This document shows positions 7,367 through 9,727 of a stretch of 18,880 bases of DNA, piece by piece. Source of the stretch: a virus (taxonomy: Duplodnaviria > Heunggongvirae > Uroviricota > Caudoviricetes). The notes beneath the pieces were generated by a model. That model saw nothing but the letters and a program-made list of their open reading frames with translations. It had not been told where the DNA came from and made no database searches. How positions within the stretch are numbered: the stretch's first letter is position 1; the number at the start of each line of letters is the position of its first letter. Made by a program: the position numbers and the translations under genes. The stretch lies in the IMG/VR virus record IMGVR_UViG_3300033074_000961; one strand, 5' to 3'.

Positions 7367-7527
7367 GGGATGAGATGGGACGAAAAGGTATCGAAAGACG
7401 CCGAGTACAGCTAGCAGGAAAGGTGAAAAAATATGTCAGCAAAGGCATACTTGAGTAGGTATCGTAGTACTGGTCATCTACTTCTGATTGCTCAGAAGGG
7501 CGGGTTCAATTCCCGACCATCCCGCCA
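7367..7527 (+). ncRNA. 161-nt structured RNA with a tRNA-like acceptor and T-arm
   Basis: 5' GGGATG pairs with 3' CATCCC, G-CCA end, CGGG-TTCAATT-CCCG T-arm, several internal hairpins; flanked on both sides by the spacer ATTTAT. Confidence 0.75.
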
Positions 7528-7533
7528 ATTTAT

Positions 7534-7608
7534 GGGTGTGTAGCTCAGCGGAAGAGCAGGCGTCTCTAAAACGTTTGGTCGTGGGTTCAAATCCCACCAC
7601 ACCCGCCA
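7534..7608 (+). tRNA. Amber suppressor tRNA (CUA), copy 2
   Basis: GGGTGTG/CACACCC, GCTC/GAGC, GGCGT-CT CTA AA-ACGTT (anticodon 7566-7568), GTGGG-TTCAAAT-CCCAC, G73-CCA. Confidence 0.95.
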
Positions 7609-7628
7609 ACAAAACACAAAACAAGTAT

Positions 7629-8102
7629 ATGAATAACCTAACGATACAAATCAACAGTCTGGAAGCACTTGAACGTCTCATTGGTGGTGATGCTCAAGTG
7701 GAAGTCGAAGTCCGCAACTCGGTGGTACAGAAGTTTGCCGAGAAGCATCTCAAACCCCTCGCAAATTGCGAACCTATTACAGCAACCTTGAATGCTATCA
7801 AGGCAGAAATTTTGAAGATTGTACAGGAGAAGTGTGAGAAGGACATCGCCACATTCAAGAACGATTGGTACGGCAGAATTAGTGATGTGAAGCTCCGTTC
7901 CGAAATCAAGTCAGAAATTGATAGTCAAGTTCGCAATGTGGTGGATGATACTATCAGAAAAGCAGTGGATGAAGCAATCAAATTCTGGGCTAATAATGCC
8001 GAGCTTGAGAAACGGGTGGAGAAGAGATTTGAATACTATACCACAGAGCATATCAATGCTACGGTGAAAGCACGTCTCGAAAAGGTCAAGGCATCGCTCT
8101 AA
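7629..8102 (+). CDS. Hypothetical helical protein
   Basis: Start moved to ATG 7629 (MNNLTIQ), after the tRNA and an AC-rich leader. Confidence 0.8.
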   Translation: MNNLTIQINSLEALERLIGGDAQVEVEVRNSVVQKFAEKHLKPLANCEPITATLNAIKAEILKIVQEKCEKDIATFKNDWYGRISDVKLRSEIKSEIDSQVRNVVDDTIRKAVDEAIKFWANNAELEKRVEKRFEYYTTEHINATVKARLEKVKASL

Positions 8103-8107
8103 TCTAC

Positions 8108-8135
8108 TTGACTTCCACCGATGGTGTGGTATAAT
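8108..8135 (+). promoter_or_regulatory. Sigma70-type promoter, leaderless
   Basis: TTGACT-16 nt-TATAAT with TGn extension; ATG 8142 lies 6 nt downstream. Confidence 0.85.
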
Positions 8136-8141
8136 GAGACA

Positions 8142-8969
8142 ATGAATAAAATCACGCTCATAATCCCTGACCTTCATCATCGGTGGAGACAGGCAGAGAA
8201 AATCATCTCCTCGGTGGGTGCTGACGAAATAATCTTTCTCGGCGACTACTTTGATGATTTTGACGACACTCCTGATGATGTCAAGGAGACGTGTGATTGG
8301 CTAGAGTCTTCGGTGGCAAAACCCAATCGAATTCACCTGTTTGGCAATCATGACCAACACTATGCATTTCCATATCGCACTTTTCAGTGTAGCGGATATG
8401 CTCAGTGGAAGTATTTCATCATCCATGACCGAATTGAACCGAAGTTGTGGGACAAGGTGAAATGGTATCATTTTCTTGATAATCGGTGGTTGATAACTCA
8501 CGCAGGACTTCATAAGTTTAACGTGCCCGACCACATCAAGAAACACCGCACCGACCGTGCCAAGTTTATTCAAGAGCTAAGTGGATATTTGGACCACGAG
8601 ATTCGTAAAGGATTTCAAGATGGTGCCAATAGCAAAAGCAATTGGGTATTCAATGCAGGTCATGCCCGTTGGGGACAACAGCGGGTGGGTGGTATTACAT
8701 GGTGTGACTTTGAGAGGGAATTCTTCCCAGTTCAAGGAATCAACCAAATTGTAGGGCACACTCCACAAGGATTAGGGTTCCCCAAGTGGTGCTTATTGAA
8801 TAATAATGGAAAAGTTTCGTACCCTCCATATGACAAGTATGCACCGACAGTAGAAATGCTGGACGATCCAGACCTGTCCGTAAACATAGACCTAGATGTA
8901 CATGGAAATACGCATTGGGGTGTATGGAATGGGCGGAAACTGACAGTCGGCAACTACATGGACTTGTAG
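8142..8969 (+). CDS. Calcineurin-like metallophosphoesterase; ends in TAG
   Basis: PDLH, GDYFD, GNHD, THAG and GHT motifs; track start 8121 lies within the promoter. Confidence 0.92.
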   Translation: MNKITLIIPDLHHRWRQAEKIISSVGADEIIFLGDYFDDFDDTPDDVKETCDWLESSVAKPNRIHLFGNHDQHYAFPYRTFQCSGYAQWKYFIIHDRIEPKLWDKVKWYHFLDNRWLITHAGLHKFNVPDHIKKHRTDRAKFIQELSGYLDHEIRKGFQDGANSKSNWVFNAGHARWGQQRVGGITWCDFEREFFPVQGINQIVGHTPQGLGFPKWCLLNNNGKVSYPPYDKYAPTVEMLDDPDLSVNIDLDVHGNTHWGVWNGRKLTVGNYMDL

Positions 8970-9001
8970 TTCACTACTTATAACTGACAGACCTCCAGAT
9001 T

Positions 9002-9054
9002 TGTCAAAGGACTTTTTATAAAGTCCTTGACATTTTTCAAAATTCAGGTAAATT
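9002..9054 (+). promoter_or_regulatory. Promoter with overlapping inverted repeat
   Basis: TTGACA (9027-9032)-16 nt-TAAATT; IR TGTCAAAGGACTTT-TTAT-AAAGTCCTTGACA (9002-9032); ATG 9063 lies 8 nt after the -10 box. Confidence 0.65.
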
Positions 9055-9062
9055 GAACGTGT

Positions 9063-9689
9063 ATGAATGGAATAGCAACCAAAGCAATTGTGCTCAAGCT
9101 CAACCGACTCTGGAAGCCGGTAGGAGTTGGCACTGTCGGAAAGACCATCTGCGACATGATGACAGGTGTGGTCCTTGGCATGGACATTGTTTATGCTACG
9201 AATCCCGACGGTACGCCAAACTTTGACGAGCAAGAGTACGTCAACCCCGTCTCTTGGGACGAGTGGATGAAGCTGCCCGTACATCCGTGGCATCTGTGCA
9301 TCCATTCGGCGAAAATGACTATCCGTATTCCTACGGTTGTCATTACCGCCAAGTACTCCAAGGTTCATGAGAAGAAGTTCAAGGGCAAACCTACCAAGGA
9401 AGCTCTCTTCATCCGTGACAATGGTATTGACGGTTACACCGGCAAAGAGCTGGAGTACGAAGACGCAACGATTGACCACGTTGTTCCGACCTCCCGTGGT
9501 GGTGCTGACACTTACGACAACGTAGTGCTCACCAGCAAGGAGATCAACAACAAGAAGGGCAATAAGTTGAACTCTGAGGCGGGACTAACGCTGTTGGTCA
9601 ACCCTCACAACCCGAAGCCGGTCAAGGTCTCGCACACGATCCGAAAGGCTCGTCACCAAGACTGGAAGAACTTCTTGGTTGTAAAGTAA
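9063..9689 (+). CDS. HNH endonuclease-like protein
   Basis: VLKLNRLWKPV N-terminus, IRD, TIDHVVPTSRGG, NVV, NNKKGNK. Confidence 0.9.
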   Translation: MNGIATKAIVLKLNRLWKPVGVGTVGKTICDMMTGVVLGMDIVYATNPDGTPNFDEQEYVNPVSWDEWMKLPVHPWHLCIHSAKMTIRIPTVVITAKYSKVHEKKFKGKPTKEALFIRDNGIDGYTGKELEYEDATIDHVVPTSRGGADTYDNVVLTSKEINNKKGNKLNSEAGLTLLVNPHNPKPVKVSHTIRKARHQDWKNFLVVK

Positions 9690-9697
9690 GAATCACA

Positions 9698-9727
9698 AAC
9701 CCCGCCTTTGGGCGGGGTTCTTTGTTT
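9698..9727. terminator. Bidirectional intrinsic terminator
   Basis: AACCCCGCC-TTTG-GGCGGGGTT followed by a T-rich tract, between convergent HNH and gmd genes. Confidence 0.85.

Follow-up and report, generated by a model that had tools for sequence, protein, structure and literature searches.

What kind of gene lies between two tRNA-like genes of an RNA array in an uncultured huge phage? The question is raised by an 18,880-nucleotide (nt) stretch of phage DNA (IMG/VR record IMGVR_UViG_3300033074_000961), the whole of which is referred to here as the window; relatives of this phage are estimated to have genomes of about 350 kb (81 kb corresponding to 23% completeness). Positions 7367-7527 of the plus strand, on which all features described below lie, make up a discrete 161-nt unit in an array of tRNA-like genes, which we named W161. 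In the explanation that accounts best for the observations, and to which we give a probability of about 75 per cent, W161 is the gene of a stable, non-decoding, tRNA-shaped RNA. Of the features of a tRNA it keeps only the acceptor stem, the T arm, the discriminator base and the encoded CCA.

An earlier inspection of the letters without database searches (the sequence-only reading) had proposed an unannotated noncoding RNA gene with tRNA-like ends at this place, and all the strings that it listed for 7367-7527 were found by a sequence check to stand where it had put them. GGGATG (7367-7372) can pair with CATCCC (7518-7523) to form a 6-bp acceptor stem, the T arm (7501-7515, CGGG / UUCAAUU / CCCG) has a standard T loop on a stem of 4 bp plus a G.A, and the 3' strand of the acceptor continues into a discriminator G (A in relatives) and an encoded CCA (7518-7527 in all, G-CCA at 7524-7527). 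The gene begins 6 nt past the CCA of the preceding tRNA-like gene. As had also been pointed out, the same AU-rich spacer, ATTTAT, stands ahead of it (7361-7366) and behind it (7528-7533), where a canonical tRNA-CUA follows (7534-7608); relatives, too, repeatedly have CCA-ATTT(AT) spacers between their tRNA-like genes. The extent of W161 is supported by its sequence, by a homolog and by covariance model matches (see below).

In place of the D and anticodon arms W161 carries a cargo of about 125 nt, predicted to fold into five hairpins with the loops GAAA, GAGUAC...GGAAAGG, AGCAAA, UAGUAC and UUGC; neither a D stem nor a 7-nt anticodon loop can be drawn. A 5' linker (AGAUGGGACGAAAA, 7373-7386) replaces the D arm and leads to hairpin H1 with a GAAA tetraloop (7387-7402). 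It is followed by the element GAGUAC-N8-GGAAAGG (7403-7423), by its sequence pattern a candidate bulged-G (AGUA/GAA) internal loop with a variable cap, then by hairpin H3 (UAUGUC / AGCAAA / GGCAUA, 7432-7449), the 11-bp hairpin H4 with a bulged C109 and the hexaloop UAGUAC (7454-7482) and, directly 5' of the T arm, hairpin H5 with seven Watson-Crick pairs and a UUGC tetraloop (7481-7498). The hairpins that the sequence-only reading had written as GGTATC-GAAA-GACGCC, TATGTC-AGCAAA-GGCATA, AGTAGGT/ATCTACT and CTTCTGA-TTGC-TCAGAAG are all present in that form.

Evidence beyond chance came from a homolog. About 30 syntenic loci were gathered via the downstream protein of 157 amino acids (aa). Only a regular-expression scan of these loci brought out a second copy, since it lies on the other side of the marker gene; it is part of L031, a Logan contig of 1.1 kb present in five samples. 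This copy (L031:535-695) is also 161 nt long and differs from W161 by nine substitutions and no indels (94.4% identity), whereas the adjacent 157-aa gene has only 71.9% nucleotide and 77% amino-acid identity between the window and L031, and third codon positions account for 92 of the 133 substitutions in it. Compared with these roughly neutral sites next door, W161 has changed roughly tenfold less. In the window the element is located upstream of the 157-aa gene, but in L031 it stands between that gene and the one for the phosphoesterase, and on account of this difference in position W161 behaves as a self-contained gene.

The nine substitutions were placed on the fold. Two pairs are changed on both sides, acceptor pair 4:154 (A-U in the window, C-G in L031) and H3 pair 67:82 (A-U to G-C), and both changes are compensatory. 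G12>A in the linker and C109>U affect bases that the consensus fold leaves unpaired, and the remaining three fall in a linker, in a loop and on the discriminator. None of the predicted pairs is broken, and nine random substitutions would give zero broken and at least two compensatory pairs with P = 5e-5.

The consensus obtained with RNAalifold from the two sequences contains the acceptor, H1, a small hairpin in the GAGUAC element, H3, H4, H5 and the T arm. The sequence-only reading had suggested a covariance model built from phage homologs; such a model (R2) was made from this consensus, and it recovered two distant relatives, L048:1944-2094 (151 nt, 38.2 bits, E 1.7e-9) and L014:178-301 (124 nt, 24 bits), whereas ordinary tRNAs in the same 123 kb scored at most 7.5 bits. 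In the four-sequence alignment 96.5% of the cells are paired, and 16 of 41 pairs are changed on both sides yet still paired: three of the six in the acceptor, two in H1, where it is L048 that has the changes, two in H3, four in H4, three of the five modelled in H5 and two of the four in the T arm. These values were not attained in any of 500 shuffles, and no slid control had more than four such pairs. It follows from the paired, doubly changed helices that W161 is a selected, structured RNA.

Where the stems have been rewritten, the string GAGUAC and the loops GAAA, UAGUAM and UUGC have been retained. The H5 stem, for instance, is CUUCUGA/UCAGAAG in the window and UCCCAA/UUGGGA in L048, with UUGC retained, and the H4 loop reads UAGUAA, UAGUAA and GAGUAA in the three relatives. 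L048 lacks H3, and a 6-bp hairpin instead of the 8-nt loop caps its GAGUAC...GAAAG element. The family can thus be defined by the acceptor, H1(GAAA), the GAGUAC element, H4(UAGUAM), H5(UUGC), the T arm and CCA; all these features are found in the window, in L031:535-695 and in L048:1944-2094, and L014:178-301 corresponds to the 3' half. A wider model (R3) found no strong new member, only weak matches (14-25 bits) on other long tRNA-like families. At the level of sequence, these comparisons place W161 in a small conserved family and show that its rate of change is far below that of the protein gene beside it. The noncoding RNA gene with tRNA-like ends proposed in the sequence-only reading has thus gained homologs in which it is conserved and structured, in addition to its encoded CCA and tRNA-style spacers. 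A kissing pair between the H3 loop (GCAA) and the H5 loop (UUGC) can be imagined, as an idea only; L048 has no H3.

Other carriers were sought in several ways. Searches of Rfam with the window and with positions 7200-7650 and 7374-7500 (gathering thresholds and E <= 10) returned only the neighbouring tRNAs and noise, so that W161 has no Rfam family. Tested by blastn against 50,697 phage records, the 7200-7650 segment gave matches at the level of tRNAs only. IMG/VR was scanned with five patterns: the 3' 26-mer as an exact string, the element GAGTAC...GGAAAGGTGAAAA, the T loop combined with either the 5' linker or the acceptor, and a module of H5 and T arm. These scans detected no other carrier; they returned nothing, eight chance matches beside ordinary tRNAs, or L014 only. 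No W161 copy came to light when the records behind L001, L002 and L024 were searched by BLAST and with the model. In Smith-Waterman comparisons of the W161 interior with the long tRNA-like RNAs and with rnaC and rnaD of phage T4, z did not exceed 3.4, and only the L014a comparison was suggestive.

Several observations weigh against the view that W161 is a structured RNA gene kept by selection. The frame has 6 acceptor and 4 T-stem pairs and not 7 + 5, with mismatches of position 7 with 151 (A.C) and of 134 with 150 (G.A). Folded singly, W161 is not more stable than its shuffles (z = -0.88), so that its sequence alone is no proof of RNA structure; it is the homolog comparison, not thermodynamics, that places it beyond chance. 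A long-range helix (7-12/108-113), in which positions 12 and 109 are still paired, competes with H4, and the substitutions are compatible with it too. Fitting the four-sequence alignment to the model structure favours pairing, and the two-sequence comparison with L031 is the cleaner test. The 94% identity could partly come from recent phage-to-phage transfer rather than from constraint, even if such transfer cannot explain the compensatory pattern. Only four members of the family were found, two of them distant. Finally, most of the approximately 30 syntenic loci have other tRNA-like genes and no W161, and the closest phage relatives mostly lack it: L001 and L004 have no RNA array at the corresponding spot, in L003 a GNRA-capped tRNA-like gene is followed directly by tRNA-CUA, and L006 has two 55-nt genes only. 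W161 is consequently dispensable or mobile.

The two junction mismatches, the chance-level fold energy and the absence from most close relatives would also be expected of a decaying tRNA or tRNA-like pseudogene. Decay is difficult to reconcile with the identity of 94.4% beside a neighbouring gene at 71.9%, with compensatory changes and no indels, or with stems rewritten in the distant homologs. A miniature transfer-messenger RNA (tmRNA) would be a related explanation, as the Rfam tmRNA model (RF00023) touches W161; the match, however, covers the T arm only and reaches 13.3 bits against a gathering threshold of 47. ARAGORN calls no tmRNA, pair 3:70 is G-C and not the G3:U70 of tmRNA, and no credible tag frame ending in a stop is present. 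We consider it very improbable that W161 is either a pseudogene or a tmRNA.

A canonical tRNA was also considered and rejected: RF00005 gave no match at E <= 10, and ARAGORN made no call on W161 even with its intron option. The sequence-only reading had allowed for an intron-like insertion handled by the local ligase, and W161 might in that case be a tRNA with one or more introns or insertions, whose removal, aided by the RNA ligase and kinase encoded nearby, would leave a decoding tRNA. Genes for an RNA ligase, a kinase and a cREC protein do lie 2-4 kb upstream, and L007A, L009A and the long L002 element are plain tRNAs with an insertion, from which hundreds of deletions give an ARAGORN tRNA. 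Every single internal deletion leaving 68-95 nt (approximately 10,000) was submitted to ARAGORN. Three long elements of relatives yielded 313, 358 and 991 calls and a fourth (L009B) none, whereas W161 yielded two marginal calls, neither of which used the acceptor stem. No single deletion thus restores a cloverleaf, and the interior, which has no D stem or 7-nt anticodon loop, is conserved like the frame over all 161 nt without indels. Moreover, bacteria and phages are not known to have a pathway for protein-spliced tRNA introns of such a kind. Taken together, these results leave the intron explanation hardly any weight, and W161 is better regarded as a non-decoding RNA.

Another possibility is that the GAGUAC-N8-GGAAAGGUGAAAA element copies 23S rRNA domain I around position 457, or is a sarcin-ricin-type bulged-G loop, and titrates a factor that binds or attacks the rRNA site. 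The sequence-only reading had named a 23S string that the element resembles, and this string does exist in E. coli 23S rRNA at position 457. The AGUA / C-G / GAA arrangement fits the bulged-G consensus from the literature, and GAGUAC and GAAAG are kept in L031 and L048. The rRNA similarity itself did not withstand a control, as the best match of the interior to 16S, 23S and 5S rRNA was reached by 173 of 300 dinucleotide shuffles. The other long tRNA-like RNAs score the same against rRNA, and Rfam shows no large-subunit rRNA match in W161. Neither L031, in which A60 is U, nor L048 retains the 13-nt match GGAAAGGUGAAAA, and the loop flanks of L048 do not form the canonical motif. Judged by these comparisons, the resemblance to 23S rRNA is due to chance, and an rRNA mimic is quite unlikely, though not to the same degree as an intron-bearing tRNA.

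The AGUA/GAA pattern has to be considered separately from the rRNA match. One side of it is closed by C42-G51, and on the other side a G.A is followed by C-G pairs that compete with H1. The element is identical in L031, occurs as GAGUAC...UGAAAGC with unequal flanks in L048, and has no covariation. A bulged-G motif is a fair reading of the sequence in three members, and the element is best called a candidate motif. The pseudoknot that had been envisaged between the H4 loop GTACT (7467-7471) and AGTAC (7404-7408) had to be given up: L031 has A in place of C104 and L048 has the loop sequence UAGUAA, whereas the partner base G39 is constant. Each RNA of the W161 family contains AGUA three times: within the GAGUAC element, on the 5' strand of H4 and again in the loop of H4. 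The pentamer RAGUA was counted 13 times, against 3.6 expected, in the interiors of eight long tRNA-like RNAs (W161, L014a, L014b, L009c, L007A, L009B, L009A and T4 rnaC), a number reached by none of 2000 shuffles in a test biased by the motif having been picked after sight.

The module in which W161 is located is rich in RNA-related genes. In plus-strand order it contains an RNA ligase (3239-4246), a cREC protein, an AAA_33 polynucleotide-kinase-like protein, a first tRNA-CUA (6353-6429), PTH2 (6481-6819) and a 125-aa gene, followed by the RNA array, the 157-aa gene, a metallophosphoesterase (Metallophos) and an HNH protein. The role of this gene set in jumbo-phage RNA repair has been described (PMC7824862). 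A sigma-70-like promoter at 6245-6272 (TTGACA-16-TATAGT with TG, 11 of 12 positions) and the first strong terminator-like hairpin downstream of it at 9698-9719 (9 bp, seven of them G-C, with a T run) are both consensus matches only; the promoter may drive the tRNA-CUA, Pth2 and 125-aa genes and the RNA array. The window has two different tRNA-CUA genes (amber suppressors; 6353-6429 and 7534-7608, the latter called by ARAGORN and scoring 68.6 bits in Rfam), although the standard code reads well, and a tRNA-CUA just upstream of PTH2 is conserved in nearly all relatives (L001-L014, L046-L050). In L003 a 174-aa gene with an HNH-like Cys motif (1858-2382) replaces the PTH2 and 125-aa genes, which suggests that the module is remodelled by homing-type elements.

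Two further families of tRNA-like genes precede W161 in the array. The 55-nt gene at 7226-7280 has no D arm and belongs to a covarying family of 11 copies at eight loci (98.9% of cells paired, 13 of 17 pairs double-changed). Its members consist of a 7-bp acceptor, a 5-bp hairpin with a 5-nt loop (UUUAG/UUCGG), a T arm and usually CCA, and fall into two subtypes starting with GGGCGTG or GGTTGGG. Copies in the relatives are L006:2375-2429 and 2432-2486, L007:1281-1335 and 1338-1392, L009:846-900 and 1057-1111, L013:20-74, L014:306-360 and 609-663, and L033:1340-1392. The 80-nt gene at 7281-7360 has a 7-bp anticodon-arm stem closed by a GNRA cap (GCGA). This family is present at six loci (98.6% of cells paired, four capped-stem pairs covarying), the other copies being L002:3284-3363, L003:2373-2452, L007:1394-1473, L010:1032-1111 and L033:1393-1478. 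ARAGORN reports the window gene as tRNA-??? (gcga), but the GNRA-capped gene has no anticodon in spite of the four-base call (gcga/gcaa), and annotation pipelines would label it a tRNA of undetermined type. A 55-nt gene of the GGGCGTG/GGTCGTG type is fused head to tail with a GNRA-capped gene with a 0-1 nt spacer, sometimes without CCA, in the window (7277-7281), L007:1389-1394, L033:1391-1393, L046:2498-2503 and L048:1728-1733. Because of this arrangement the 5' cut of the second RNA would create the 3' end of the first.

In relatives, the same module also contains tRNA-shaped genes of 118-186 nt that make up at least four more families, each represented by a pair with 70-82% identity: L009:585-718 with L048:1542-1672, L009:723-841 with L048:2100-2217, L009:906-1050 with L047:2376-2518 (perhaps also L050:1337-1513), and L014:179-301 with L048:1820-1939. 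Further long genes of this shape are L007:1115-1277 and L014:364-549. Among these families are a tRNA with a D-loop insertion of about 65 nt and a GNRA-capped RNA with a T-stem insertion of about 85 nt. With several non-decoding, tRNA-ended families in one place, the RNA-repair/Pth2 module is a hotspot for such genes. The L002 locus also has tRNAs with the anticodon loops CUAAUAA and CUAAUAC (3366-3471 and 3474-3555; AAU according to ARAGORN), one of them with a structured variable-region insertion of about 34 nt that ARAGORN reads as an intron.

From the sequence of the gene and its flanks it is natural to infer that W161 is matured by the tRNA pathway. It would share a transcript with the adjacent tRNA-CUA, with the Pth2 gene and with the rest of the tRNA-like genes. 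As in tRNA maturation, RNase P would recognise the acceptor/T minihelix and set the 5' end, while the AU-rich spacers and the encoded CCA would allow the host tRNA 3'-end machinery and exonucleases to finish and maintain the 3' end. The tRNA chassis would give the RNA its stability, and the conserved loops of the cargo would contact a protein or RNA partner.

Processing could, on the other hand, be the whole purpose of the element. Transfer RNAs punctuate mitochondrial transcripts and mascRNA lies at the end of MALAT1; by analogy, the tRNA-like fold of W161 might be only an RNase P or 3'-end cut signal that separates cistrons and releases a functionless RNA. The position of W161 between protein genes in both genomes, with different genes in each, would be in keeping with such a role, as would the absence of a terminator between the promoter-like site at 6245 and position 9698. 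For a mere cut signal, however, a 55-nt minihelix suffices, and such elements sit next door; nor would it call for a cargo of about 125 nt that is 94% conserved, loops included, and has covarying stems. We regard punctuation as an unlikely explanation and prefer an RNA that is itself functional.

As to the function of such a non-decoding RNA, our committed guess, based on genomic context, is that W161 may act as a decoy or adapter for a tRNA-binding factor in a conflict over the translation apparatus, the factor being perhaps an effector with which the host targets tRNAs, or the repair enzymes of the phage itself. The reasons for this guess are the module with RNA ligase, cREC, kinase, Pth2 and phosphoesterase genes and the presence of at least two anticodon-less tRNA-mimic families beside W161. 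A bolder version, which at present is speculative and has a small chance of being correct, assumes an arsenal built on the tRNA chassis, in which at least six non-decoding families of the clade would each display a different bait. W161 would present a sarcin-ricin-like AGUA/GAA hairpin and the conserved loops UAGUAM and UUGC, and would, as a decoy or adapter, either capture a host factor directed against tRNA or ribosomes or recruit the phage ligase, kinase or Pth2.

These results have a bearing on a long-standing question. The species 1 and 2 RNAs of phage T4, for which we know of no function after about 50 years, are usually seen as a curiosity of the T-even phages. W161 has the same design, tRNA ends around a foreign structured body, in a huge phage unrelated to T4, and its substitution pattern indicates that it is under strong purifying selection. 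This selection and the neighbouring families of tRNA mimics in a module for RNA repair and translation rescue point to a general, largely unannotated class of phage RNA genes, which standard annotation misses or mislabels as tRNAs with undetermined anticodon. Experiments on W161 can make use of its defined ends, its conserved loops and the natural occurrence of variants that have the gene and others that lack it.

Among known RNAs, W161 shares with canonical tRNA (RF00005) the acceptor, the T arm with its UUCAAUU loop, the discriminator followed by CCA, and the position and spacing in the array, but it is twice as long and has no D arm and no anticodon arm or loop. The tRNA-like domain of tmRNA, including reduced phage forms, resembles it in that an acceptor and a T arm without a D stem frame a long insert; unlike tmRNA, W161 has no G3:U70, no tag frame and no supported pseudoknots. 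YrlA, which acts with Ro60/Rsr (RF02553), is likewise a noncoding RNA with a tRNA-like module and a link to RNA-repair enzymes (PMC7824862), but YrlA carries its tRNA-like part inside and has the Ro-binding stem at its ends, whereas the ends of W161 are themselves the tRNA-like part. Identity with YrlA was rejected, the best score being 16.6 bits against a gathering threshold of 69, on neighbouring T arms and not on W161, and no TROVE domain was found in the ten plus-strand proteins scanned (3239-9689). The tRNA scaffold that Ponchon and Dardel reportedly engineered in 2007, in which a cargo in the tRNA body is said to be processed and stabilised like a tRNA, corresponds to the mechanism proposed here, a structured cargo in a tRNA body. 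That scaffold is man-made and has a full cloverleaf except for the anticodon loop, whereas W161 is natural and lacks the D arm as well.

The closest parallel is found in T4, where RNAC (species 1, rnaC, 139 nt) and RNAD (species 2, 119 nt) lie, as W161 does, inside a phage tRNA gene cluster, rnaC beside rnaD and tRNA-Arg. Like W161, RNAC combines a canonical T arm with an acceptor-like stem, which covaries in T-even phages, and has a large structured body instead of the D and anticodon arms; it also carries GAGUA strings. Its function is still not known (PMC3014915, PMC9697503). The two RNAs differ in the number of hairpins and in the loops, their interiors show no particular similarity (z = 0.8), and CCA is encoded in W161 and not in RNAC. 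A model of T-even rnaC (R1) gave no match on the window at E <= 10, and R2 and R3 gave none on the T4 locus. Since neither model finds the other, W161 is, by these model searches, not a member of the RNAC family; in architecture, T4 RNAC is its nearest precedent.

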